Below, one piece after another: positions 1 through 51,410 of a stretch of 52,701 nt of DNA; position 1 is the stretch's first letter, and the number at the start of each line of letters is the position of its first letter. The translations under genes were made by a program, and so were the position numbers. Source of the stretch: a virus. Lineage: Duplodnaviria; Caudoviricetes. Location: IMG/VR virus record IMGVR_UViG_3300042465_005662, positions 1 through 52,701 of that record. One strand, 5' to 3'. The notes beneath the pieces were generated by a model, which saw only the letters and a program-made list of their open reading frames with translations, was not told the DNA's origin and searched no databases.

Positions 1-200
1 ACTTCGGGGCGCATGGTGAAAATGTAATTCTCGCTGGGGTCTTCGCCGTACCGTTCGCGGTACGCGGTGCAGTTTGCGAGATAAAGCTCCGCGGCCAGGC
101 CCCGGGGGTCCAGGCCATCAATGAATGCGGCGGCATGGTTTGCCACGGCCCAGGAAACCAGGGCGTCAATATGGAAATCAGGGACAACAAAACAGCTCAT
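1..200 (-). CDS. hypothetical early protein, 3' end runs off the window (MSCFVVPDFHIDALVSWAVANH...)
   Basis: Open frame from ATG at 200 to the window edge, preceded by the same AGGATAGAGAA RBS as neighbouring early genes; not in the ORF track. Confidence 0.8.
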   Translation of the reverse strand, partial: MSCFVVPDFHIDALVSWAVANHAAAFIDGLDPRGLAAELYLANCTAYRERYGEDPSENYIFTMRPE

Positions 201-249
201 TTCTCTATCCTTTCAGGTTGCCCGGTGCAGGACCCTGCACCAGTGCCGC

Positions 250-259
250 TATTATAGCA
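250..259 (-). promoter_or_regulatory. extended -10 promoter (TGcTATAAT) for the gene starting at 200
   Basis: Minus strand reads gTGcTATAATagcggcac, followed by hairpin GGTGCAG-ggtc-CTGCACC and the RBS. Confidence 0.65.
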
Positions 260-333
260 CGGCCACCACGGCGCGCGGCCAATTGAATTTTTTAATCGAT
301 TCCCCCGGGGCCATAGCCCCGGGGCCCGGGCCA

Positions 334-349
334 TGTTTCACGTGAAACA
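334..349. promoter_or_regulatory. parS: parS centromere-like site TGTTTCACGTGAAACA, inside a perfect 28-bp palindrome at 328-355
   Basis: Exact match to the widely conserved bacterial chromosomal parS consensus, in a non-coding gap. Confidence 0.8.
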
Positions 350-531
350 TGGCCCACGGACCGCGGCGCGCGACCCGCGCGCCGGGTTTCAAGGGGAAAT
401 TCCCACGTTTCAGGCGGCAAGCGGCAGGGGCCGCGGGCCTGGTTTACCCTTGCCGCAACTAACCGGGCAAAACCATGAGTTTTTCGCATGGTTTCACTCG
501 ATAGCCCGGGACTATCGGCCCCGGGTTTCCA

Positions 532-1494
532 TTAGTTAACAGCTAACAGCTCCAGGGCCTTATTTTTAATGGCCGCACCAGTGCCAAACCAGGCGGACTC
601 CATGCGGGTGTTATTGCTCCGGCCCCGTTCATGGTCGACCATTTCGGTAACCGCGTTAAGCATGGCCCAGCGAGTACCGGACACCCCGGGAATGTCCGCG
701 CCGATAGCCTGGCCGTTAAACAATTCCATGATGCGCTTATAACCGCGGGTTTCATTCAATGGCACTTTGCTGGTGTGATAAGGCTGCAGCAGTGCCTGGA
801 CAAATTTATCGGCGGTAGCTTGTGACATTTCGACCAGTGCCAGCTTGCGGGACTGCACCAGGAAGCGCTCCCAGTTATCGGACACTATGCCCAGCTCCAT
901 GCGGACAGCATCAGGATTAAAGCGCTCCGAATGCAGCACTCGAACAGTGCCAGCACTCTCGCGGCCTAATGCGGCGGTAATTGTGTTATTGCAAACCACG
1001 CGAATGCTAGTAAATTTCGCCACTGTAGCCATAGTGCCATCGTATGACGTGCCCAGCAGCACATAAGGCCGCACGGTATCGCCCTCAACGATATCCGCGC
1101 CCTGGTTGACTTTCGCCAGTGCCCAAACCCGGCGACCATGGCTGAGCACTCCGGCGGTTTCCATTTGAAACCCGCCGATATCCACCAGTTTGCCAAAAAA
1201 GCCCATAACGTCAGCTGGTTGCACTACGCGGTACCCGTCAGACACTACGGCCAGTGCCCCGCCTGTATCTGAGCGGTGCAGTACTTTGCGGCCCTTGAAT
1301 TCCTCCGGCAGTGTTGCCGCGTCAGTCTGAAACAGTACGGGCGACTCTTTCACCGTGTAATCTAACCCGGCTTCGCGGGTCCATGTCTCGATTGATGCGT
1401 CAGGCGTCAACGCCTGGCCCAAGCCATGCCAGGGAGTATTGCCAGCGTAAGCCATAGCGGCCTTGCCTGTAGTGGTGTCAATCATATGTGCCAT
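532..1494 (-). CDS. DUF932 / TIGR03299 phage-plasmid family protein
   Basis: MAH...PWHGLG N-terminus, VVSDGYRVVQP, SYDG, IRVVCNNT and GTRWAMLNAVTE motifs; strong RBS. Confidence 0.85.
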   Translation of the reverse strand: MAHMIDTTTGKAAMAYAGNTPWHGLGQALTPDASIETWTREAGLDYTVKESPVLFQTDAATLPEEFKGRKVLHRSDTGGALAVVSDGYRVVQPADVMGFFGKLVDIGGFQMETAGVLSHGRRVWALAKVNQGADIVEGDTVRPYVLLGTSYDGTMATVAKFTSIRVVCNNTITAALGRESAGTVRVLHSERFNPDAVRMELGIVSDNWERFLVQSRKLALVEMSQATADKFVQALLQPYHTSKVPLNETRGYKRIMELFNGQAIGADIPGVSGTRWAMLNAVTEMVDHERGRSNNTRMESAWFGTGAAIKNKALELLAVN

Positions 1495-1537
1495 TTTCTC
1501 TATCCTTTCAGTGTTGCCGGTTTATTCCGGTGATTGA

Positions 1538-1567
1538 ATTATATACCCAAATTAAACAGCTGTGCTA
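1538..1567 (-). promoter_or_regulatory. sigma70-like promoter for the DUF932 gene
   Basis: TAGCAC-18-TATAAT on the minus strand, then CCGG-aataaa-CCGG hairpin and RBS. Confidence 0.55.
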
Positions 1568-1630
1568 ATCCCCAGTAAACAGGTCGACTATTATCCACAG
1601 CAAGATAAATACAGCCAGGGCGAAGAACAT
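1565..1630 (-). CDS. 21-aa hydrophobic peptide MFFALAVFILLWIIVDLFTGD
   Basis: ATG preceded by AAGGGG just after the upstream stop; one TM-like stretch; fills the gap; below the ORF-track cutoff. Confidence 0.55.
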   Translation of the reverse strand: MFFALAVFILLWIIVDLFTGD

Positions 1631-1641
1631 AGTTTTGCCCC

Positions 1642-2331
1642 TTATGCCTGTTTCATCATGAAAACCTTAGCCATTTTCCGGCCATGCGCGGGATAGCAGA
1701 TAAGATCGATTGATTTATCCCAGCATGCCCTACAGCCTGAACATTTGCCCTCATACTCGTATGCCCTGCAAAGTGATGCGCCAGGACGGTCCTGGAAAGT
1801 GTCCGCACCTGGACCGATAACAGATCCATGCAAGCCCGGGATATATTCCCCGGTGATGCTATCGGCCGAAAATCTAACGCTCACGTTGTCCAGGGATTTC
1901 ATCTGTTCCAGGACCTGGCGAAATTTCGGGAATTTATGCATGCGCGTTGGTAGCCAGTGCTTAACCCAGGGCGTGCGCTGCATAACCTCTAGGACCTTTT
2001 CGGCCAATGCCAGGCTAAACAGATCTCCGCTATCAAGCCACCGAAAATACTCGTCTTGCTGCAGTTCCTGCACCATGTTGTCGCACCAGTCCAGGCGGGT
2101 CCAGTCTGTTCGGTTGTATTCCCTGGGGGCTTTCACATTGGCGAAAACATAATTCCCGGTGGTGGCATAGCAGCCCTTACACGCGTCAACCAATACCCCC
2201 GGGGATTCAATCGAACCAGGGCAAGTGTCTAAAGCTTGCAGGGACCAGGACCGGATACCATCTAGTTTTGACGTAACGCTAATGCGCGGCCAGGCTTGAT
2301 CGATAGCGTTGACAAGTGTCGAATTTCTCAT
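1642..2331 (-). CDS. Gp88-like protein, Cys-rich, possibly Fe-S / radical-SAM-like
   Basis: TSKL...SWSL...TCPGS...CKGCYA, FRWLDSGD, HWLPTR and C-terminal C...CSGCRACW motifs. Confidence 0.75.
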   Translation of the reverse strand: MRNSTLVNAIDQAWPRISVTSKLDGIRSWSLQALDTCPGSIESPGVLVDACKGCYATTGNYVFANVKAPREYNRTDWTRLDWCDNMVQELQQDEYFRWLDSGDLFSLALAEKVLEVMQRTPWVKHWLPTRMHKFPKFRQVLEQMKSLDNVSVRFSADSITGEYIPGLHGSVIGPGADTFQDRPGASLCRAYEYEGKCSGCRACWDKSIDLICYPAHGRKMAKVFMMKQA

Positions 2332-2352
2332 TTCTCTATCCTTTATGCCTGA

Positions 2353-2571
2353 TTAAGCTACATCGGTTCCCAGTTTGATCTCGCGTAGCTCCCCTAGTGC
2401 ATCTGTTAGCGTGACTGTGCCGAACACGGGAACATGTTCAAAGCTCATATCTAAGTCACTATCGCGATTTACAGCCGCGGCAAATTTCACAGCTTCATCA
2501 CGGGTTGCAAATCGATAGACCCACACAATACCGTTTTCATCAGTACCAACTGCCAAATCAATCGTGCTCAT
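2353..2571 (-). CDS. hypothetical early protein, 72 aa
   Basis: ORF with the conserved AGGATAGAGAA RBS and its own promoter. Confidence 0.75.
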   Translation of the reverse strand: MSTIDLAVGTDENGIVWVYRFATRDEAVKFAAAVNRDSDLDMSFEHVPVFGTVTLTDALGELREIKLGTDVA

Positions 2572-2613
2572 TTCTCTATCCTCTATGGTTGCCCGGGGTG
2601 TTCCGGTGCCGCT

Positions 2614-2642
2614 ATCATAGCAGCAAATAAACAGCCGTGCAA
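2614..2642 (-). promoter_or_regulatory. sigma70-like promoter TTGCAC-17-TATGAT with extended TG
   Basis: Canonical spacing, A/T tract upstream, CCGG hairpin and RBS downstream. Confidence 0.7.
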
Positions 2643-2643
2643 A

Positions 2644-3066
2644 TTATTTTATCGGTGATTTCCCGGATAAGATATCGGCCAGGGCTTGCCAGTCCATGCC
2701 CCGGTTAGGCCATGCGGCCAGGGGTTCAAGGCGTAGCCCTTGCTCGGCCAGCTCTATTGCCTGTCGGCCATGGTACAAAACAATGCGGCCAGGGCGAACA
2801 ACAGTGCTCACCTGGTGCACCAGCACGTAGCACGGGCGACCCCGGGCGGCATGGCGGGTTAAAAAGGCAATCTGATGGGGGCGAAGCGCGATCTTCAAGC
2901 CACGCGAAACCGCTTTCAGCTCAATCGAAACAAAGCGATCACCCGCGCCCACCAGCATGTCAGACACGCCCAGGTTAACGCGGTTTTCAATCCGTTCGGT
3001 GTCGATGTCAAAGGGGCGAAGCCCGTCACGAACACGGGCGGCAAAGGCGGCTTCAGGCGTTGTCAT
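2644..3066 (-). CDS. PD-(D/E)XK nuclease, Holliday junction resolvase / VRR-NUC-like
   Basis: E...RIEN..GVSDM...IELK...LRPHQIAF motif set; likely start MTTPEAAF at 3066. Confidence 0.75.
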   Translation of the reverse strand: MTTPEAAFAARVRDGLRPFDIDTERIENRVNLGVSDMLVGAGDRFVSIELKAVSRGLKIALRPHQIAFLTRHAARGRPCYVLVHQVSTVVRPGRIVLYHGRQAIELAEQGLRLEPLAAWPNRGMDWQALADILSGKSPIK

Positions 3067-3727
3067 CGTCGGGTCCCAAATCGTTGTCCCGTTCAAAGAT
3101 ATCCGGGGGAGGTTCCGCCACTGGAGAGACAAAAGCCGGGTCCCGTTCACGCTCGACACTTTCGATCACCTGTCCCGTGCTGGCATCAATGAGCGCGCTC
3201 GGGGGCGGTCCGCCGTACAAAGCGCGCAACTCGTCCAGTTTGCGCTGCACTTCCTCTTTGGACATCGAGTCGATTGTTCCATGCCTGATTTCCTTGCGAT
3301 CAACGTAGATTGTGCCCAGGGCTTGCCCACGGCGATATTCTGCCTGCACGGCAGCAGCATAAGCCCCGGCTTCCAGGGCTTTGTCCCGGATAAGCTGCAG
3401 GTCCTTCATGTGCCGCTCGTATGACGTGTTGTATTTGCTGTTCAGCTCTGCCCGGTATGCTTGGATAGCAGAGACCACGTGAGGGTTGATTTCGGGGTTC
3501 GTCAGCTTCCAGGCCATCACTGAGGCGCTTGTGGGCCTGTACCCAGCCCTGATAGCCGCCTCCTTCATGGTCACCCGGCCATCACCCGTCACTAGCTCCG
3601 AAACAAACTTCCATTCCTTGCCAGACAGGATTTTCTGTTTACGCAGCGGGGCCACCTCGGTGGCCATGCGCGACTGAGCCTTGTCCCTGATCACAGGGGG
3701 CACGTTCCAAACATCCCGCTTGGTCAT
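3053..3727 (-). CDS. terminase small subunit
   Basis: N-terminal HTH (KEWKFV...EAAIRAGY...A), helical region, AAVQAE...G.A.G.Y.DR motif; likely start MTKRDVW. Confidence 0.7.
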   Translation of the reverse strand: MTKRDVWNVPPVIRDKAQSRMATEVAPLRKQKILSGKEWKFVSELVTGDGRVTMKEAAIRAGYRPTSASVMAWKLTNPEINPHVVSAIQAYRAELNSKYNTSYERHMKDLQLIRDKALEAGAYAAAVQAEYRRGQALGTIYVDRKEIRHGTIDSMSKEEVQRKLDELRALYGGPPPSALIDASTGQVIESVERERDPAFVSPVAEPPPDIFERDNDLGPDDDNA

Positions 3728-3939
3728 GCAATTCTCCAGAGACGCCAACCGCTCTCGACCCGGCGCAACTGGAACGACCAGTCAGGGGCATGCGACCGGA
3801 CAAACCGCAGCGCAGACACCCGGGCAGAGTTGGCCTGTTTCTCGTCAACAAAGCGGATTGAATCCCCCGGCAGCATGTCGCCAAAGGGGTACTTCGTACG
3901 CCCCATGGGCATCTCAACGCCCGACTCAATCTGAAACAT
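3724..3939 (-). CDS. small putative DNA-binding protein (KYPFGDM.PGDS...RLWR family)
   Basis: Recognisable small phage protein motif; ATGA coupling to terS; start MFQIESG. Confidence 0.65.
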   Translation of the reverse strand: MFQIESGVEMPMGRTKYPFGDMLPGDSIRFVDEKQANSARVSALRFVRSHAPDWSFQLRRVESGWRLWRIA

Positions 3940-4806: not shown

Positions 4807-5132
4807 CCGACCACACAAAAGAAGGCCTGTTGCTTTTTAACTACACATGCGACGAGTTAGGTGTTGATCTGGCTTGTTGGTTTGAATACGAAGCCGCGAG
4901 CCACGGCGCGAGAAGCCGTTTCGGTGAGCAGTTGGAGCCCGACTACCCGGCCACCTGGTCCCTGTACCACGTCTACCTGCCCAACTCTGACGTGGACATC
5001 GCCCCTGTGTTGTCGTCTGACGTGGCCAAGGAGATTGAGAACTGGGTGGCGGACCAGGCCGAAGAGGAGGCTGCTGATCAGGAATGGGATGACGGGTACG
5101 ACAAGTTTCAAGACTGGAAGGATGCGCAATGA
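4803..5132 (+). CDS. hypothetical acidic protein
   Basis: ATGA overlap; start MTDHTKEG. Confidence 0.7.
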   Translation: MTDHTKEGLLLFNYTCDELGVDLACWFEYEAASHGARSRFGEQLEPDYPATWSLYHVYLPNSDVDIAPVLSSDVAKEIENWVADQAEEEAADQEWDDGYDKFQDWKDAQ

Positions 5133-5511: not shown

Positions 5512-6218
5512 CGACGCAATTGGTTCGAGACTCCATGAAGCTGATGTCTGATGCTGGCGTAGATATTGTGGACATCAAGTGGTTCGACCTGACCGGAGCA
5601 TTTTCAGAACATAAACATGCCAACCTTGAGCCTGTGATGACGCATCGCCCACCATTTGACAAATGTTTTGTCACTTGGAGGGGAAAGACTCGCAGCCACC
5701 CAAGCTACGAGGTCTTGATGTTGGTGTCTGGGACAGAGCCAGACGAGGGAATCACGGTGTCAATGTGGAAGGGTCCGAGTGGTACAAGGTTGCGCCCCAT
5801 CCCCGCGATGTTTTACTTCATAGAGGATGACAATATCCGTTATGGCGCAGTCAGTGATGAAGAGCCTGTAGACAAGGAGTTGGCAGAGATCATGCTGGCG
5901 CAGATTGGGGTTTGGTACAGCGCCATGGATGAGCGTATTGAGGCCTACATTCCATCGGTTCGAGATACCTTCACAAATCGACGCAAGGTACAGCAGGGCA
6001 AGCTGCCGACCTACGACTGGACAACGGTTTGGATTGAGCCAGCCAAGCCCCGCCAAGACCCCAAAGGGGGCACACACGCATCACCCCGCCTGCACGACCG
6101 TAGAGGCCACCTGAGGAGGCTCAAAACCGGCAAAAACGTCTGGGTAAAGTCCTGCAAGGTGGGTGACGCAAGCAAGGGAGCAATATTTCACGACTATGCA
6201 ATCAAGGAGCAGAAATGA
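5508..6218 (+). CDS. conserved phage protein with C-terminal HASPRxHxRRGHxR motif
   Basis: ATGA-coupled ORF with a basic His/Arg C-terminal motif common in phages. Confidence 0.8.
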   Translation: MTTQLVRDSMKLMSDAGVDIVDIKWFDLTGAFSEHKHANLEPVMTHRPPFDKCFVTWRGKTRSHPSYEVLMLVSGTEPDEGITVSMWKGPSGTRLRPIPAMFYFIEDDNIRYGAVSDEEPVDKELAEIMLAQIGVWYSAMDERIEAYIPSVRDTFTNRRKVQQGKLPTYDWTTVWIEPAKPRQDPKGGTHASPRLHDRRGHLRRLKTGKNVWVKSCKVGDASKGAIFHDYAIKEQK

Positions 6219-7831: not shown

Positions 7832-7983
7832 CTAAAGTAGAAGCACTGCAAGCAATCAAATTGCTGTCCGCCCTGGAGTCGTGGGCCATGAGCCAGCAAA
7901 AAACTCTTCCTCCCTACTTGGATCAATACCTTGTAGAGACCATGGAAGTGATGGAGCGAATCTTGTTGGAAGAAAAGCCATGA
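7828..7983 (+). CDS. hypothetical protein
   Basis: ATGA coupling, AAGGAG RBS. Confidence 0.65.
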   Translation: MTKVEALQAIKLLSALESWAMSQQKTLPPYLDQYLVETMEVMERILLEEKP

Positions 7984-8219
7984 CCGCCGAAGACGAAGAA
8001 TTCAACCGCATCGAGCGCGAGGCATCCATGCGCAAGGCCGCGGTCCTCGTCGCGATCACCAAGAAGGAGTGGATCAGCCTCCCGGACGAAGAGATAGTTG
8101 CCGCGATCCACGAGGCTGAGGGGTTCGCCTTTGGCCTGGACAACGGCAACGTGTCGGACAGGTCCGTGATCGAGTATGTGCGGATTGTTGAAGAACTGCT
8201 GAGGAAGAAAAACACATGA
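7980..8219 (+). CDS. hypothetical protein (EDEEFNRIERE...W..L.DEEI...LRKKNT)
   Basis: ATGA coupling. Confidence 0.7.
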   Translation: MTAEDEEFNRIEREASMRKAAVLVAITKKEWISLPDEEIVAAIHEAEGFAFGLDNGNVSDRSVIEYVRIVEELLRKKNT

Positions 8220-8845
8220 GCTACATCATTGCATCCCTCCCTCCGCTCAAATGCTTTGTGCGGCGCGAGTTTCTGTACAACCACACCAAGGGCCAGGGCG
8301 AGTTTGAGCCCGCCATCTGGGTCAGCATTAAAGCGCTGCGCGGTCAGGTGTTCAGGATCGAATCGCTCCTGCCCAACTACGGCGCGCTGTACGACAAGCT
8401 GCCCTTGCATGCCTATGTCTGGACACACAGCCACGGCGACTTGCCCATCGACACGCTGCAACTGTGGGACTGCATGGGCTACCGCTTCACGGTCCTCGAG
8501 AAGATCGGTCTGCGCAACCTCGGCGTCAAGTTCCTGGGTAAGGACAAGAAGTGGCACCACGGGCGCTACATGTTCACCGTGGACTTCTGTGCGGACGGTA
8601 TGGACGTTGACACGGGGTTCACGGAGCAGGCTGAGGAGCACAAGAGCTTCAACTTCATCCGCTTGGAGAACGGCCAGTTTGCTTGCCAGCCAAACAACCG
8701 CTGCCTGTGGTACGACCAGAGCTTGATTCCTGCTGAGGTGAAGCTCCCTGATTTCCAGGCGGCGAAGGATTTTTACACTGTTGACGGTTCGCGCAAATGG
8801 GCCGCGGGCGACGATTGGTTTTACGGTATGGAGGAGAGAACATGA
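8216..8845 (+). CDS. conserved uncharacterised phage protein (VRREFLY...QPNNR)
   Basis: Long coupled ORF with strong GC3 bias; motif pattern familiar from aquatic phages. Confidence 0.85.
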   Translation: MSYIIASLPPLKCFVRREFLYNHTKGQGEFEPAIWVSIKALRGQVFRIESLLPNYGALYDKLPLHAYVWTHSHGDLPIDTLQLWDCMGYRFTVLEKIGLRNLGVKFLGKDKKWHHGRYMFTVDFCADGMDVDTGFTEQAEEHKSFNFIRLENGQFACQPNNRCLWYDQSLIPAEVKLPDFQAAKDFYTVDGSRKWAAGDDWFYGMEERT

Positions 8846-9051
8846 AAAAAGACATGAAGGTCTGGGCGATCAAGCTCAGGGGCCGCAGCTTCTACAAAGA
8901 CAGCTACGACATTCCTTTTGTTTATCCAACAAGGATTGCCGCGGTGATGGAAACCGAGAAGATTGCAGACTGGAAGAACAGGAACCCGATGAACAGAAGC
9001 CCATCAACCGAAGTAGTGCGCGTCAGATTGCGCATAGAGGAGATCGCATGA
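8842..9051 (+). CDS. hypothetical protein
   Basis: GGAGG RBS, ATGA coupling. Confidence 0.65.
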   Translation: MKKDMKVWAIKLRGRSFYKDSYDIPFVYPTRIAAVMETEKIADWKNRNPMNRSPSTEVVRVRLRIEEIA

Positions 9052-9284
9052 GAAAACAAACCTGCAACTGCCACCCTGACTCACCTTTTCACTGGGCGCG
9101 CAACCCGCAGCCCAGCATTTTTGTCAATGATGTCGCGTTCCGGCCCAAGAAGGCGCAGGTGTACGAGAACCTGACACAGGAGGAGAACCTAGTGGCCTAC
9201 AAGCAATTCAGCATCCACAGCCGTGCGCATCCCAAGATCAAGCCAAGCCTGAACAAACACGAACTCGGAGGGATTAGAAAATGA
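9048..9284 (+). CDS. hypothetical protein (CNCHPDSPF)
   Basis: AGGAG RBS, ATGA coupling. Confidence 0.65.
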   Translation: MRKQTCNCHPDSPFHWARNPQPSIFVNDVAFRPKKAQVYENLTQEENLVAYKQFSIHSRAHPKIKPSLNKHELGGIRK

Positions 9285-9466
9285 AATGGAAAGAGTGGGG
9301 CGAGAACCATTGGGTGCTGATCGACAGCCGAGGCGAAGTGGTTGACGAAATCAAACGCGACAGCCAATTCTTCTTTGTACTGAAAAGCACCAACAAGAAG
9401 TTTGTCGACATCAACAAAGCCAAGAAATCTAGAATGACAGGAGTAGAAAATGGAAAACGGGATTAA
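9281..9466 (+). CDS. hypothetical protein
   Basis: GGAGG RBS, ATGA coupling. Confidence 0.6.
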   Translation: MKWKEWGENHWVLIDSRGEVVDEIKRDSQFFFVLKSTNKKFVDINKAKKSRMTGVENGKRD

Positions 9467-9740
9467 AAGAATTCGTCTGTGCATGGGCCTGACCCAGCAG
9501 CAGTTTGCTGACATGCTGGAATGCTCCCAGGGCAACATTGGCCACTACGAGCTGCGCGATCAAATGGTCCCGCCCGAGACGGCCAGGAAACTTATTGCTG
9601 AAGCCGCGAAGCGCGGTTCACGAGTCACGTACGAAGACATCTACGGCACCGTGGACGAGCCTGTTGTCAAGATGAGCCCCCGCGCACGCAGGGAGATATT
9701 GGAAATCACCGAAAGGAGAGCACGCCATGCAGAAGATTGA
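9450..9740 (+). CDS. XRE/Cro-family HTH transcriptional regulator
   Basis: IKRIR..MGLTQQQFADML..SQGNIGHYE HTH_3 pattern. Confidence 0.85.
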   Translation: MENGIKRIRLCMGLTQQQFADMLECSQGNIGHYELRDQMVPPETARKLIAEAAKRGSRVTYEDIYGTVDEPVVKMSPRARREILEITERRARHAED

Positions 9741-10742: not shown

Positions 10743-11327
10743 ATGAGCAAAAAATTAAAACCCACCACCCTTGCAATTCTTGCAGCCCTGAAGGCCAAAC
10801 CGGAGGCCAAGCCGCGGGAACTTGCTGCAGAGTACGGCGTCGCTGTCAGCTACATCTACAAGCTGCGCAAGAAGCTGACCGAAGGCAGGCGCAAGATTAC
10901 CCTGACCCGCGACCAAGTGGAGATCGCAAAGAAGTTGGGCGTGTCCCTGGAAGACTATGTCAAAGAAGGCCTGAAGATGGGCGCGCTGCAGTTTGACGGC
11001 GAGCGTCCAATCGTCAATCCAGAGATCACTATGGAGCCCGAGGAGACGAACGTGGACCAGATTCTGGGAGAGCGCGGCAATCGCTACGGCACCTTTGAAA
11101 GCAATGCCAAGACCTGCCAGTTGCTGAAGAACGTGCTGCACTCACAAGAGGGCTGGTACCGCCTTTCTTATGTCCAACGTGAGGCGGTGGAAATGATGAT
11201 GCACAAGATCTCCCGCTTGGTGAATGGTGATGCGACCTATCTTGATACGGTTGTTGACATTGCAGGCTATAATCAGCTCATGTTGGAACACATGAGGGAT
11301 CGAAATGAAGGCAAGAAAGTGGAATAA
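10743..11327 (+). CDS. HTH + scaffold-like motif + DUF6378-like (all-alpha NTP pyrophosphohydrolase-like) domain protein
   Basis: C-terminal L.ERG.RYG.F...EM..HKI.R...GD...D...DIAGY; N-terminal HTH (PRELAAEYGVAVSYIY); AGGAG RBS. Confidence 0.75.
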   Translation: MSKKLKPTTLAILAALKAKPEAKPRELAAEYGVAVSYIYKLRKKLTEGRRKITLTRDQVEIAKKLGVSLEDYVKEGLKMGALQFDGERPIVNPEITMEPEETNVDQILGERGNRYGTFESNAKTCQLLKNVLHSQEGWYRLSYVQREAVEMMMHKISRLVNGDATYLDTVVDIAGYNQLMLEHMRDRNEGKKVE

Positions 11328-11841
11328 CAGCACGCAGCAACGGGCATATTACTCCTGGAGAAACATGCGCAGACGCTGCACCAATCCTAGCGATGACTCC
11401 TATCACCACTACGGGGGTCGTGGCATAACAGTGTGTGAACGCTGGGAAAGCTACGACGCCTTTTTTGAAGACATGGGCAACCCGGCACCGGGCCTGTCAC
11501 TTGATAGGATTGATAACAGCAAGGGCTATTCACCAGAGAATTGCCGATGGGCCACGGTCCGCGAGCAACTTAACAATCAGCGCAGAAATGTGGTGATTGA
11601 ACACAGCGGCATCAAGATGACGATTGGTCAGTGGGCCACGCATCTTGGGCTGCATTACGACACCCTTCACAAACGGCTTGAACGGATGGGGCCCGAAAAG
11701 GCTCTTCAAAAAGGCAGATTGAAAGAGTGGAAGCACGGAACGCGGGCCGGGTATGAAGGCCACGGCTGCCGCTGCGACCTTTGCAAAGAATCAAACAACG
11801 CCCGTCACCGGGCACAAAGAGAGAAACGGAGAAACACATGA
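11305..11841 (+). CDS. free-standing HNH-type homing endonuclease-like protein
   Basis: W..M..RC...Y..YGGRGI.VC.RW...LDRIDN..GYSPENCRWAT; C-terminal HGT..GY..GCRC..C. Confidence 0.8.
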   Translation: MKARKWNNSTQQRAYYSWRNMRRRCTNPSDDSYHHYGGRGITVCERWESYDAFFEDMGNPAPGLSLDRIDNSKGYSPENCRWATVREQLNNQRRNVVIEHSGIKMTIGQWATHLGLHYDTLHKRLERMGPEKALQKGRLKEWKHGTRAGYEGHGCRCDLCKESNNARHRAQREKRRNT

Positions 11842-12295: not shown

Positions 12296-12318
12296 AAAGG
12301 GCCCCGCGGGGCCCTTTT
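12294..12318. terminator. bidirectional intrinsic terminator
   Basis: AAAAGGGCCCC-gcg-GGGCCCTTTT between convergent genes. Confidence 0.85.
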
Positions 12319-14182
12319 ATTTTGCTTCGCCCCAGCTTGGGCCAACTTCTACGTCACACCGGTTGGGCACTTCCATCTTGACGCAGTTTGCCATGATCTG
12401 AGCAGCCTGCAGCGCCTCATCTTTGGTGCGCACGGACAGGGCCAGCTCATCGTGCACTTGGAGGATAGGATCAAAGCCTGCCTTTTTCAGGGCCACCATG
12501 GCCGCTTTGGTCTGGTCTGCGGCAGACCCCTGGATTAAACGATTGAGCCCCTTGTAGGTGCCTGCGCGCTTGATCCTGGAGCCGTATTCAATCACAGCCT
12601 GTTCACGTGGCAGCGCTTTGTTCACGCCCCACTCCATTGGTTCCCAAAGAGGGAACCGACACTTGCGGCCAAGCAGCGTGCGGATCGCGCCGCCTGCAGC
12701 CGGATGGTCAATCCGCTTCATCACCGCGTTGACCGTGCCCTTGAGGAACGGGACGTTGGTATGGAACCGTGTGATCAGCTCCTCCGCTTCGCTCAGGGCC
12801 AAGTCTAGTTGCGCCGCGAGCTTGTTCTTGCCCATGCCGTACATCAGGCCCAGGCCGATCGTCTTGGCTGCCTTGCGTTTGATCCCGGCCATGTCCGCCA
12901 CCATCTGGTGGAAGTCGGTGTTGGGATCGTTGTTGTAGGCGTCGACCATGGTGTCGGCCCCGGGCAGGCCTAGGAGGCTTGCGTAGTGCACCAGCAAGCG
13001 CGGTTCTTGGGACGAGAAGTCATTTGATGCCCACATGTGCCCCTGCTCAGGCAGGAACAGGCCACGCACCATCGGGCCAATGATCTCGTGCCGGGCAGGC
13101 ACCTGCTGGAGGTTGGGGTTGGCCATGGACAAACGGCCAGTGACCGTGCCGCCATCATCAGAGCGCATCTGGTTGACGTGGGGATGGATGCGTCCTGTCT
13201 TGGCACTGAAGTCCATGTAAGGCTGCAGGAATGTGCTGTGCGTCTTGTTGGTCTCGCGCGCCTCAATGATCATCTTGGCCAGCGGGTGATCGTGGTTGTC
13301 CAGGAACTGCTTGGTGAAGCTGGGTGCGCCCTGCTCGGTCTTGGCATACTGAATGCCCAGGCGGTCGAAGGCGTGGGCAATGGACGCCGCACCCCAGATG
13401 TCGATCTTGACGCCTGCCTGCTCTTTCATCTCTTTGAGCAACTGGTGCTCGCGGGTGCGCATGCGGTCAATCATCAGGCCGCACTTCTCCCTGTCAAAGC
13501 GGATGCCCTTGCGGGTCATCTCCAGCAGCACAGGGAACACATCGGTCTCGACACCGAAAATGGATTCGACTTCATCCTGGCGCATCTTGATCTTGAAGTG
13601 CTGCCAGAGCTTGAGGGTCAGCGCCGCGTCTTGCTCCGCGTACTCGCCGACGTACATCGCTGGGAGCTTCCAGAGCTCTTTCTTAGGGTGGACGCCAAAG
13701 TCGGCTGCCGCTTGTTTAAGCCCTTGCTCCGATTTAATCTCTTGGAGGTAGTCGAAGCCAAGCGCATTAAGGCTGAACGAGAAACGGTTTTCGTCAAGAA
13801 GGGGGGCCGCAAGCATAGTGTCCATGATTCGGCCATTGATTGTGAATCCACTGGCACCCAGCCACCCGGCGTCGTAGGCCGCGTTGTGCATGATCTTGTC
13901 GGCGGGGGTGGCCAGAACGTCTTTGATCCATCGTTCCACCATCCTTTTATCGAGATTACCTCCTCCAGCATGAGCAACAGGATAGTACCCAGACCACCCA
14001 TCCACAGCGATGGCATATCCAACAATAAACCCGTCAGCACGAGGCCAGCCGGGACCAAAAGACTCCAGGTTCGGATCGCATGTTTCGAGGTCAATTGCTA
14101 TCTCCTTGGCTGTGGATAAGTTGGGGAAAGTTTCCGGAGCAACCCACTCTGTGGGGGTCGGGAAAAGTGGCATGGTTCTCAT
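12317..14182 (-). CDS. polA: DNA polymerase family A with 3'-5' exonuclease domain
   Basis: Exo DLET and HNAAYD; TGRLS..PNLQQ; motif A DFSSQEPR; motif B KTIGLGLMYG; motif C QVHDEL. Confidence 0.95.
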   Translation of the reverse strand: MRTMPLFPTPTEWVAPETFPNLSTAKEIAIDLETCDPNLESFGPGWPRADGFIVGYAIAVDGWSGYYPVAHAGGGNLDKRMVERWIKDVLATPADKIMHNAAYDAGWLGASGFTINGRIMDTMLAAPLLDENRFSFSLNALGFDYLQEIKSEQGLKQAAADFGVHPKKELWKLPAMYVGEYAEQDAALTLKLWQHFKIKMRQDEVESIFGVETDVFPVLLEMTRKGIRFDREKCGLMIDRMRTREHQLLKEMKEQAGVKIDIWGAASIAHAFDRLGIQYAKTEQGAPSFTKQFLDNHDHPLAKMIIEARETNKTHSTFLQPYMDFSAKTGRIHPHVNQMRSDDGGTVTGRLSMANPNLQQVPARHEIIGPMVRGLFLPEQGHMWASNDFSSQEPRLLVHYASLLGLPGADTMVDAYNNDPNTDFHQMVADMAGIKRKAAKTIGLGLMYGMGKNKLAAQLDLALSEAEELITRFHTNVPFLKGTVNAVMKRIDHPAAGGAIRTLLGRKCRFPLWEPMEWGVNKALPREQAVIEYGSRIKRAGTYKGLNRLIQGSAADQTKAAMVALKKAGFDPILQVHDELALSVRTKDEALQAAQIMANCVKMEVPNRCDVEVGPSWGEAK

Positions 14183-15922: not shown

Positions 15923-17451
15923 AATGGACTCCCTTCGGTGCGTTGGGTTTGTGTGTCGAACGGCGCTTCTTGTTTGCCGAAGCGCGGGATGCGCCAGCAG
16001 CGCACAGCGCGGCCCTTGAGGAACAGGCTGATGGGCTCGCCGCCGATGTCGCGCAGGCGCTGGGCCATCTTAGGCGCTGTCAGGGCTTTGAAGTTGTTGC
16101 GCAGCAGGTGCGCGTCCATGTCCTTCATGCGGAAGTAGGTCTTGCCCTCGTCCTCGTCTGTCCATGGTCGGCCCATGAGCATCTCTTCGCGGGCCAGGGC
16201 CTGTTGCATGTGGGTCGTGAATTCTTCCAACAGGTCCATGAACCGACCAATGACGCTGGTGTCTTCGGAGGCCACGGTGATCTGCTCGGTCTCCACCATC
16301 TCTTTGAGCAAAGCGTTGAGCAGGTTTTCCCAGTCAACCTTGCGCAGCGTAGGCGGCACGGTGTTGATCTTTTCGAGGCATGCCTTTTGGAAGGCCGCTT
16401 GGTTGTAAAGCATCTCTGTCTCGAGCTCTACACGCTTGCCATTGACGTCCAGGAACCACAGTGGTGGGTCGCTGGCGTACTTGGACAGGCTGGCTATCTG
16501 AGCCGCATCAGGGGCGTGAGCTCCGATTCCGAATTTGCGAGAACGGCACAGGCCTGAGTTGCAAAAACTGTTGAGAGGCGCGTCCTTGCATTTGTATTGA
16601 TAATCCTTTTTGCCCGCCTGTTTGATGATGAGTTGGACCTCATTGTTAGGTAGCGGGGGAGCAACGTACTTGAGGTTGTACTCGACCATCTTGTCTTCCC
16701 ATCCACCTGGGTGGGCACGTTTAAGATAGACACCAATGTTGAATAGGCCATTATTGCGGGTGCCTTCCGGAAAGCCCTGCGCACACAGTGCCTGTAGACA
16801 AGGCGGGCCATCTTTGATGGGGCTCTCCGCTTGCTTCGGTGGCTCTGGGAAATTAAGCGGCGTGTCCTGGACATTTGCAGCGTGGAGCTCATAAAACTCT
16901 TCAAGGGTCGCCGCAGAACCGTCGGCATTGAATGCATACCTTGTACCCGAATCCCCGCCAAAGTACGGAAGGTTGAGGAAGTTGCCGGTGTCTCCTCGGT
17001 CCACGAGGATCTCTGCTTGCTTGGGGAATATCTCCCGGCCTGCCTCGCCAAGGAGAGCAGCAGCGTTCTTGAGATACGTCTGGTAGTCACGAGCAGGCGC
17101 AGGCGTTTTTGTAAATAGGAATACATGTGCACCTCCTGATTTGCTGCGGCACACGACGAGCGGCAGCTTCAATTGATGAATTTTTTCAACCAAGCCTTTG
17201 TGGTCGAGCGGGTACTGATCAATATCGATGCAGCCCCAGATGCAAGTGTTGTCAGCACGAATTGGGATAATGCCCAGGGACGGGTCAACCCCCGCAAAAT
17301 GCTGGACCCATAAATCGTCAGTAGGTGGCTTGCGAACCACCGTAGCTTGTCCCGCCTGCTTACCATCGCCTCGCTCCGATTTAATTCTGTAGGTGCCATA
17401 AGCGATGTCGAGGCCGCTGAATATGGCTTTGAATCTGGTGATGTCGGTCAT
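15919..17451 (-). CDS. AEP-superfamily primase with PriCT-like / Cys-rich central domain
   Basis: IDID, RSKSGGAH, EIFPKQ, GNFLNLPY; then PPCL...EGTRNN...C...C...C; likely start MTDITRF. Confidence 0.8.
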   Translation of the reverse strand: MTDITRFKAIFSGLDIAYGTYRIKSERGDGKQAGQATVVRKPPTDDLWVQHFAGVDPSLGIIPIRADNTCIWGCIDIDQYPLDHKGLVEKIHQLKLPLVVCRSKSGGAHVFLFTKTPAPARDYQTYLKNAAALLGEAGREIFPKQAEILVDRGDTGNFLNLPYFGGDSGTRYAFNADGSAATLEEFYELHAANVQDTPLNFPEPPKQAESPIKDGPPCLQALCAQGFPEGTRNNGLFNIGVYLKRAHPGGWEDKMVEYNLKYVAPPLPNNEVQLIIKQAGKKDYQYKCKDAPLNSFCNSGLCRSRKFGIGAHAPDAAQIASLSKYASDPPLWFLDVNGKRVELETEMLYNQAAFQKACLEKINTVPPTLRKVDWENLLNALLKEMVETEQITVASEDTSVIGRFMDLLEEFTTHMQQALAREEMLMGRPWTDEDEGKTYFRMKDMDAHLLRNNFKALTAPKMAQRLRDIGGEPISLFLKGRAVRCWRIPRFGKQEAPFDTQTQRTEGSPF

Positions 17452-50495: not shown

Positions 50496-51410
50496 TTACG
50501 CAGCGCCAGGAGAACCGTAGATACCACGTGGGTCAGACCAGCCGAAGCTGTAACGCTCACGGGCCTTGTAACGCACGTTACCGGTGTCGAAGTCGCCTTC
50601 GAAAGCGGTCTTGATGGGCGAACGGTTGAACATCTTCAGGCCGTTAGGCGCGTCGGTGATCAGGAACCATGCATCCACGTCGGTCAGGTAGTGGTTGACA
50701 GCGTAACCTTCGGGAATCAAGCCCATGGACTTGATCGCGTTGATATCGTTGTCAGCAGTGCCAGTGCGCAAAGTGCTCTTCATCAGGCGCTCTGCAGTGA
50801 ACTGCAGTTCCTTAGGAACGATCATCTTGCGTGCTGTCAAGGCAACCTTCAGGCCACGTTCGTCCGTGAACGCCGCGATGTCGATGATGCCTTGCTCGAG
50901 GGATGTCTCGTTCAAGTCAGCAGCAACCAAGGGGCGGTTCGCGAAGTTAGGACCCAAGGCAGTGGGGTGAGCAGTAGACATCAAAGCCACGCCGTCACCA
51001 CCAGCGTATTGACCGCCGGTGAAGCCATTGTTCAACACGGAAGCAGCTTTAACTTGCTTGGTGTTGGCCATGGAACGAGCCAGAGCCTTGGTGTAACGAG
51101 CAGACAGACGGTCGTAGAGGTTGTCCTCGACGGCTTCTTCTGTCAGCGCGAACGCCATAGCGATGGTTTCGTGGGTGTAGCGAGCAGTGAACGATTCCAA
51201 AGCGGTGTCGTATGCCAAGCCAGCACCTTCGGTCTTCACCGGAGCGGAGCCGAAGCCAGTCAACATCACCTCTTCTTCGAACGCACGATCAGATGTCTCG
51301 GTAGAGAAAATCTCTTCGTGTTCGTTCTCGTAGCGCTTGTACTCAATACCGAACAGGGCGTTCAGGCCCGGCTCAAGTTCTTTAACGAGTTGGGAACGGG
51401 TAATAGCCAT
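50496..51410 (-). CDS. major capsid protein (Mu gpT-like annotation family, HK97 fold)
   Basis: MAITRSQLVKELEPGLNALFG...DNLYDRLS.RYTKALARSM...KARERYSFGWSDPRG; highly biased codons; followed by a terminator. Confidence 0.9.
   Translation of the reverse strand: MAITRSQLVKELEPGLNALFGIEYKRYENEHEEIFSTETSDRAFEEEVMLTGFGSAPVKTEGAGLAYDTALESFTARYTHETIAMAFALTEEAVEDNLYDRLSARYTKALARSMANTKQVKAASVLNNGFTGGQYAGGDGVALMSTAHPTALGPNFANRPLVAADLNETSLEQGIIDIAAFTDERGLKVALTARKMIVPKELQFTAERLMKSTLRTGTADNDINAIKSMGLIPEGYAVNHYLTDVDAWFLITDAPNGLKMFNRSPIKTAFEGDFDTGNVRYKARERYSFGWSDPRGIYGSPGAA

Follow-up and report, generated by a model that had tools for sequence, protein, structure and literature searches.

Why should a phage that encodes no partition proteins carry an exact copy of a bacterial chromosomal centromere? 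No bacterial system for chromosome segregation is more widespread than ParB-parS, and the recognition sequence of this system, parS, occurs in exact form in the virus genome analysed here (a stretch of 52,701 nucleotides, hereafter the window), in a short gap between two genes. We consider below whether this sequence is a protein-binding site, an RNA hairpin or an accident of genome history, how it has fared among related phages, and what the phage might gain from it. Our answer is that it is probably a genuine parS, maintained by selection, on which the chromosomal ParB of the host would be loaded.

The phage and its relatives

The window is a linear IMG/VR virus record with a CheckV completeness estimate of 85%, and it is a truncated record of an HTVC023P-like phage of ~61 kb. 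A complete relative of 61.5 kb (G001) aligns to both of its ends, so that some 11 kb are missing from the window. In G001 the absent stretch comprises small genes, terL (Terminase_6C/6N), a following gene for a 1043-aa protein with SLT and DUF6973 domains, a gene for an 804-aa protein in the place where Phage DSL-LC04 has its annotated portal, and a GroES-like gene; in relatives this stretch holds a second and more widely conserved parS. The phage encodes its own DNA polymerase, primase and helicases, the window carrying a family A polymerase (12317-14182) with a helicase, a primase and a second helicase, as well as a major head protein (50496-51410), tail-fibre-like proteins and large virion proteins.

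The nearest GenBank record is Phage DSL-LC04, with 75% identity in the polymerase and 64% in TerL, which also has the same annotated gene order around the terS-like gene; the Pelagibacter podoviruses HTVC023P and HTVC027P come next at 46-54% identity. A megablast of window positions 1-3000 against GenBank phages gave no match, a distant search with the structural genes gave trivial matches alone, and no tRNA genes were found in the window, so that they offer no hint of the host. Phages of the HTVC023P type are described, in the part of their genome report that is available, as probably strictly lytic (bioRxiv 2019.12.14.876532). Two possible auxiliary metabolic genes lie within the plus-strand block from 5.5 to 12.3 kb, one at 8216-8845 (+; phrog_3704, labelled ferredoxin, E 6.5e-74) and one at 10743-11327 (+; phrog_474, labelled phosphofructokinase, E 9e-21).

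An exact parS site in a hairpin-rich gap

Positions 334-349 read TGTTTCACGTGAAACA (site A). This 16-mer is centred in a perfect 28-bp palindrome, GGGCCATGTTTCACGTGAAACATGGCCC (328-355), which extends it with the GC-rich flanks GGGCCA and TGGCCC; no strand is assigned to either. Both features had been picked out in an earlier, sequence-only reading of this DNA and were confirmed when the sequence was re-read, and the identification of the 16-mer as a parS of the chromosomal type was borne out, since it fits exactly the consensus TGTTNCACGTGAAACA given in the available text of a ParB review (PMC7022226). A scan of the 52.7-kb window finds no other parS match at up to three mismatches, shuffled windows contain a mean of 0.24 such matches, and by simple arithmetic the exact 16-mer is expected about 1e-5 times per 52.7 kb. 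Enrichment of half-parS motifs across the window was considered and dropped, as 12 were observed and 16.1 expected. A lone half-site, GTTTCAC, lies at 491-497 in the same gap, 142 bp from site A.

The gap itself (201-531, 331 bp, minus strand) is non-coding, as the sequence-only reading had stated, and separates two minus-strand genes. Upstream of site A is a DUF932 gene (532-1494, minus strand; PF06067, E 4e-58; phrog_1221, E 6.5e-66), and on the other side begins the next operon, whose first gene (3-200, minus strand, ATG at 200) is partial, runs off the window end and matches neither Pfam nor PHROG. The same reading had assigned the site to an early region between early genes, which was wrong: a weak terS-like gene at 3053-3748 (minus strand; phrog_51, E 1.4e-7; phrog_641, E 1.1e-4), taken with the annotated synteny of DSL-LC04, places site A within the terS-to-terL interval and so in the packaging/late module.

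The gap is rich in GC inverted repeats. Folded as RNA it reaches -177.2 kcal/mol (z = -6.35), a stability equalled by none of 100 shuffles; the 28-bp palindrome would form a 13-pair hairpin, and a second GC hairpin, CCCCGGGGC-CATA-GCCCCGGGG (303-324, likewise given no strand), adjoins site A and is kept in several relatives. An Rfam scan of positions 1-1600 returned nothing relevant, its sole match being a sub-threshold c-di-GMP-II at 1204-1249, and a promoter/terminator scan called neither feature in the gap by the rules of the tool. From our own reading of the sequence and of the relatives' alignment we recognise a putative extended -10 promoter element, TGCTATAAT, at 251-259 on the minus strand, with site A lying 78 nt upstream of it in the minus-strand reading. 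Past this element the minus strand has a small 5'-UTR hairpin, a Shine-Dalgarno-like GAAAGGA and then the ATG. When the gap of the window is aligned with that of 20 relatives, every one of the 21 rows has TATAAT, and all but one also have the TG before it. The element would, judging by these features, be the promoter of the operon that in relatives extends to terL, and because the genes past it differ among close relatives, a mosaic boundary falls right at the promoter. An A/T-rich near-palindrome (the AATTGAATTTTTTAAT region; window 240-300, minus strand) precedes the -10 element.

Such a setting raises the question of whether site A is anything more than one of several GC stem-loops following DUF932, acting as a terminator or in RNA stability or processing, with a likeness to parS that has no function. 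The unusually stable fold of the gap is what this explanation predicts, and a comparison of site A across 80 viral loci, whose DUF932 proteins are 71-95% identical to that of the window, gives it some further support. The expectation that parS would recur at the syntenic position in relatives was borne out in part: the exact 16-mer lies 165-186 bp past the DUF932 stop in 6 of the 80 loci (L121, L123, L124, L128, L137 and L181), but other relatives have other GC hairpins there. In the 21-row alignment, where the architecture of the gap is conserved throughout, the slot is filled by parS in five rows and by unrelated GC palindromes in the others, and the copy in the window could on this account be mainly a hairpin. 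The flanks, too, lengthen the palindrome in the window and G001 and, with different bases that are again complementary (GGGCAT / ATGCCC), in L223; in L221 and L232 they are imperfectly complementary.

It is in the centre that the explanation fails. Where present at site A, the 16-mer is exact or differs by one change (L223), and it is held through four versions of the flanks, whereas hairpins tolerate compensated change. The sequence-only reading had named conserved flanks around a freely varying centre as the sign of a plain hairpin or terminator, and the relatives display the opposite, a central 16-mer that is kept and flanks that vary. Moreover, no U-tract follows the stem, no terminator was called, composition-matched palindromes yield no matches in the loci described below, and the 16-mer recurs at two further sites with flanks that are not palindromic, one of these inside a coding frame. 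We therefore think it very improbable that the resemblance to parS is functionless. The GC stem with U-tract and compensated variation that would mark a terminator or plain hairpin is not what is seen, but the hairpin potential is real: site A is a parS that sits within a stem-loop, and its palindrome may serve as an RNA hairpin as well, at the point where transcription of the DUF932 unit ends.

A second site within a structural gene

Evidence for selection on the DNA comes from the stretch that the window lacks. In G001 and G002 a second exact parS (site B) stands 3.8 kb further on, within the SLT-domain gene that follows terL. An exact parS is present in all ten loci found with that SLT-domain protein; nine have it at the same gene position with differing flanks, and the tenth (L215) has an exact and a one-mismatch site ~1.1-1.2 kb upstream of its partial match. 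A wider set was assembled from 80 loci with TerL proteins 79-100% identical to that of G001 (684,056 nt in total). Among the 72 having at least 750 nt after terL, a parS with at most one mismatch occurs at +350 to +750 after terL in 44 and is absent from 28.

These copies provide 36 distinct contexts of 106 nt. Fourteen positions of the 16-mer show no variation at all (100% identity), a single sequence departs at position 7 (97% identity), and position 5 is divided between T (23 contexts) and C (13 contexts); the flank columns are 27-91% identical. In G001 the gene starts at 5115 and the site at 5645, in a reading frame that encodes Val-Ser-Arg-Glu-Thr, so that the change from T to C at position 5 turns TCA (Ser) into CCA (Pro). 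Position 5 is the sole degenerate base (N) of the published consensus TGTTNCACGTGAAACA, as the available text of the review gives it (PMC7022226). Third-codon positions within the site are all fixed. Since third positions are fixed while an amino-acid change is tolerated precisely at the consensus N, and since the flanks are less conserved than the near-invariant 16-mer, selection acts on the DNA and not on the peptide. The variation among the 36 contexts, at position 5 and in the one sequence that departs at position 7, stays within the limits that ParB tolerates. The complete genome G004 has a decayed version, TGTCTCACGTGAACCA, at the same codon position, with two mismatches that comprise one synonymous and one non-synonymous change.

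Other copies are more restricted. A third position (site C), ~20 bp before the terL start, is occupied in L228, L245, L247, L254 and L258, and L277 and L280 have an extra parS copy 90 bp past site B. The flanks of sites B and C are not palindromic. Relative to terL, site A lies 1.8-2.4 kb upstream and site B 0.44-0.55 kb past the stop. The complete clade II genome G100 (C1) has sites at 13304-13319 and 14033-14048, 730 bp apart, one of which is a doubly substituted perfect palindrome, TGTTCCACGTGGAACA.

All sites of the family thus fall within ~4 kb around terL, in the interval from terS to the gene after terL, and this location invites another explanation: that the binder is a phage protein and not a detectable ParB homologue, perhaps a small terminase acting at a pac-like site or a late-gene regulator, and that identity with parS is convergent or irrelevant. 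The conserved -10 element that follows site A at a distance of 78 nt would suit a regulator, many of the small phage ORFs match no Pfam or PHROG family, and an unrelated complete record also carries parS ~2 kb upstream of its terL. However, a binder other than ParB would need to agree with the consensus at each of its 16 positions and to allow variation at the same single degenerate one, as set out in the available text of the review (PMC7022226). Relatives that lack parS also have terS-like and terL genes, no terminase adjoins parS in two other unrelated records that we examined, and a ParB-family domain was detected in none of eight genomes of the lineage. For these reasons we regard recognition by such a phage protein as unlikely, and recognition by a chromosomal ParB remains our preferred reading.

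Distribution and loss among relatives

Enrichment over shuffled expectation, a check proposed with the sequence-only reading, is clear: the 80 TerL loci contain 58 parS matches at up to one mismatch, against none for each of 20 half-site-shuffled, composition-matched palindromes. On a TerL tree, made as a quick maximum-likelihood version, loci with parS occupy two supported clades: 15 of 16 rows in one and 32 of 33 in the other have a site, and the single exception in each is too short to score. One isolated row also has a site. The minimum number of changes in parS presence on this tree is 3, compared with a mean of 22.2 when presence is shuffled, and none of 500 shuffles was as low.

Absence is equally well defined. 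Within ~4.5 kb of terL, which is how absence was scored on the tree, 27 of 75 scorable relatives have no parS. A diverged site or other palindrome taking its place at the site B position was looked for and rejected, for the 28 loci without site B have nothing at up to three mismatches, save site C in L228. Among the complete genomes, G001, G003, G005, G099, G100 and G101 carry parS. G102, G104 and G106 have no parS genome-wide at up to two mismatches, and DSL-LC04 has none at up to three; the best match of the isolate HTVC023P is at three mismatches only, and G105 has a one-mismatch site elsewhere in its genome. HTVC027P has a one-mismatch site, CGTTTCACGTGAAACA, between terS and terL, to which we give little weight because it perhaps lies inside an unannotated ORF. 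The region in question (L218 1716-1998; MN698241 ~16216-16498) separates gp31 from gp32 and is called intergenic in the annotation, yet it can be read as an open frame. This frame has a PD-(D/E)xK-like motif, 'PDLLG...LELK', and contains the one-mismatch parS, read as F-H-V-K. On an evolutionary timescale, parS is dispensable.

The sites might alternatively be neutral passengers, whether chance matches or remnants of captured host DNA, and phage genomes are mosaic, with a module boundary right past the promoter beside site A. Against this stand a chance expectation of ~1e-5 per genome and the persistence of site B in 44 of 72 loci, where it is part of the reading frame of a phage structural gene and its flanks have diverged. 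The copy in G004 exemplifies such a sequence in decay. In IMG/VR, at least 119 records contain the exact 16-mer and 2 contain the same letters reversed, and the gap and site B alignments do not show the flanks of the sites to be host-derived. Neutral persistence appears to us barely credible.

Partition genes and the candidate host

The phage does not seem to supply a ParB of its own. Six-frame profile searches, in each of which control genomes matched and which a novel fold would escape, found ParB_N in neither the window nor its relatives, HTH_ParB in none of 5 genomes and the full-length ParB model TIGR00180 in none of 8 genomes, of which all but one are 90% complete or more. For ParA, AAA_31 was absent from the window and the CbiA-type from all 8 genomes, and the tyrosine integrase profile (Phage_integrase) likewise matched none of the 8. 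The absence of phage-encoded ParA, ParB and integrase that had been noticed in the window therefore extends, by these profiles, to the complete relatives.

The binder of the phage parS would, from the sequences compared here, most likely be the chromosomal ParB of the host. A weak hint of the host comes from related terL genes on contigs binned into three metagenome-assembled genomes (MAGs), assigned to Burkholderiaceae, Rhodoferax and Crocinitomicaceae (L299, L300 and L301), one of the three thus being a Bacteroidota bin. In the family of the Rhodoferax MAG, 35 of 41 sampled genomes have 1-4 clustered sites, which read exactly TGTTTCACGTGAAACA and TGTTCCACGTGAAACA, the two variants found in the phages, and four of these genomes have a parB gene at a distance of 2-7 kb from the cluster. 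The match between the phage variant and the parS of the predicted host, which the sequence-only reading had asked for, thus exists for this candidate. With two sites per genome, a phage would carry about as many parS as a whole candidate-host chromosome. Since phage contigs of this family occur in MAG bins, their parS could also cause them to pass for chromosomal origin regions, and parS scans of metagenomic bins should be read with the caution that they can catch phage contigs.

A proposed role for the phage sites

Identity with the consensus, purifying selection at the level of the DNA, retention across clades, the lack of phage par genes and the occurrence of the same variants beside parB in a candidate host family have all been established here. 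Taken together, these sequence comparisons lead us to conclude that the 16-mer probably functions in cis and is under selection, as an orphan parS of the chromosomal type on which the chromosomal ParB of the host would be loaded. In the model that we propose, which takes its loading and clamp-sliding steps from established ParB biology, ParB dimers would first assemble on the phage parS, where they would turn into closed, CTP-dependent clamps that then slide along the adjoining phage DNA, and each phage genome would thereby acquire a centromere-like partition complex.

The sequence-only reading had put forward segregation, coating of the incoming DNA and titration of ParB as candidate roles. 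Three consequences might follow, and we give them in our order of preference. First, ParA could position the phage genomes and so ensure that both daughter cells inherit them during long infections of slow-growing aquatic hosts. Second, phage sites could compete with the host origin for ParB, with an effect resembling incompatibility; as the candidate host family has just 1-4 sites per chromosome, replicating phage DNA would soon outnumber them. Third, ParB-dependent loading of SMC might organise concatemeric phage DNA near the packaging genes. These consequences we infer from ParB biology and the precedent of SGI1 discussed below. The packaging/late module that houses the sites is probably silent early in infection, and a location near terS and terL is compatible both with positioning and inheritance and with SMC loading, favouring neither.

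That strong selection on the DNA has preserved the chromosomal centromere in genomes without par genes, and has done so even within a structural gene, implies some direct contact of phage DNA with the ParB, ParA and SMC of the host. If host ParB does bind, three matters become testable: where replicating phage DNA is placed within the cell, whether lytic phages are inherited through the divisions of slow-growing aquatic bacteria, and whether titration of ParB disables host segregation. Hosts would also have to possess canonical ParB, which makes parS a signal for host prediction. Enterobacteriaceae and Pasteurellaceae have no par genes (PMC7022226).

Comparison with known systems

The phage sites share with the parS of chromosomal ParABS systems an identical 16-bp palindrome, whose common variant differs only at the consensus N, and a number of 1-3 copies per replicon, like many chromosomes. 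They differ in belonging to a replicon of lytic type without cognate parB or parA, and in lying beside packaging genes and not at an origin or parAB operon. Neither the window nor its complete relatives is, accordingly, a replicon that encodes cognate ParAB and bears parS near its origin.

The plasmid-prophages of P1 type offer a second comparison, for there too a phage genome has a centromere-like site for a ParB-type protein (P1 ParB is mentioned in the available text of PMC12704722). Their cassettes are self-encoded, however, with ParA and ParB beside element-specific sites, while the lineage of the window has no par genes and carries the chromosomal sequence itself, so that it does not belong to this type. 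P7 and N15 are further plasmid-prophages with partition cassettes.

A closer precedent is SGI1, whose parS mimics bind the ParB of an IncC plasmid, stabilise SGI1 and destabilise or displace the plasmid, according to the available text of that study (PMC10954446). As in SGI1, we find no ParAB but another replicon's parS sequence, the owner in our case apparently being the host chromosome. The differences, judged from the same partial text, are that SGI1 is an integrative mobilisable element exploiting a plasmid, whereas in our case the exploiting element would be a virus, one that lacks integrase, and the system exploited would be that of the chromosome, through candidate sites known from sequence. 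Lambdoid phages rich in Chi are analogous only in that a short host motif is kept to engage a host machine; motif, machine (RecBCD) and logic all differ, as far as the part of that work available to us goes (PMC12315714). Co-resident replicons such as SCP1, by contrast, are reported in the available portion of a recent study to keep their parS distinct from that of the chromosome and so to avoid cross-reaction (10.64898/2025.12.10.693275), which makes the opposite choice in this phage lineage notable.

Our literature search, with supplementary files and subscription journals outside its scope, returned no account of host-type parS kept by phages lacking ParB. The genome paper on the HTVC023P type mentions neither parS nor ParB, the word 'phage' does not occur in the available text of the ParB review (PMC7022226), and a survey of ParB-fold proteins treats, in its available text, phage-encoded ParB proteins and not orphan sites (PMC12704722). 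Judged on sequence grounds, these lytic-type aquatic phages without par genes most likely keep parS in order to capture host ParB, and this would be an undescribed route by which viruses enter the chromosome-segregation machinery of their hosts.

parS in other viral genomes

Records with parS extend beyond the family of the window. Among 100 of the at least 119 IMG/VR records with the exact 16-mer, 3 had a ParB_N match, as did 1 of the 25 that were at least 90% complete. We suggest, tentatively and with rather less conviction than for the site itself, that orphan host-type parS may be a widespread strategy of phages without ParB, strictly lytic ones included, in which mimicry of the centromere would bring host ParB, and by way of ParB also ParA or SMC, onto the phage DNA. 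Were this so, phage genomes would be positioned, inherited or compacted by the host while out-competing its origin for ParB, and the clustering of sites beside the terminase would suggest that ParB/SMC loading is connected with the way in which concatemers are prepared for packaging.

Several individual records may be described separately. L046 (IMG/VR G050), a complete and apparently unrelated genome of 54.5 kb without a ParB_N match, has an exact parS at 11566-11581, ~2 kb upstream of its terL (7954-9561, phrog_38), a placement that resembles that in the family of the window. Five small viral records (L007, L021, L022, L061 and L073), none of them with a ParB_N match, have 3-5 exact parS clustered within a few hundred bases to ~3 kb. 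Several IMG/VR records of 15-16 kb with inverted terminal repeats also carry parS.
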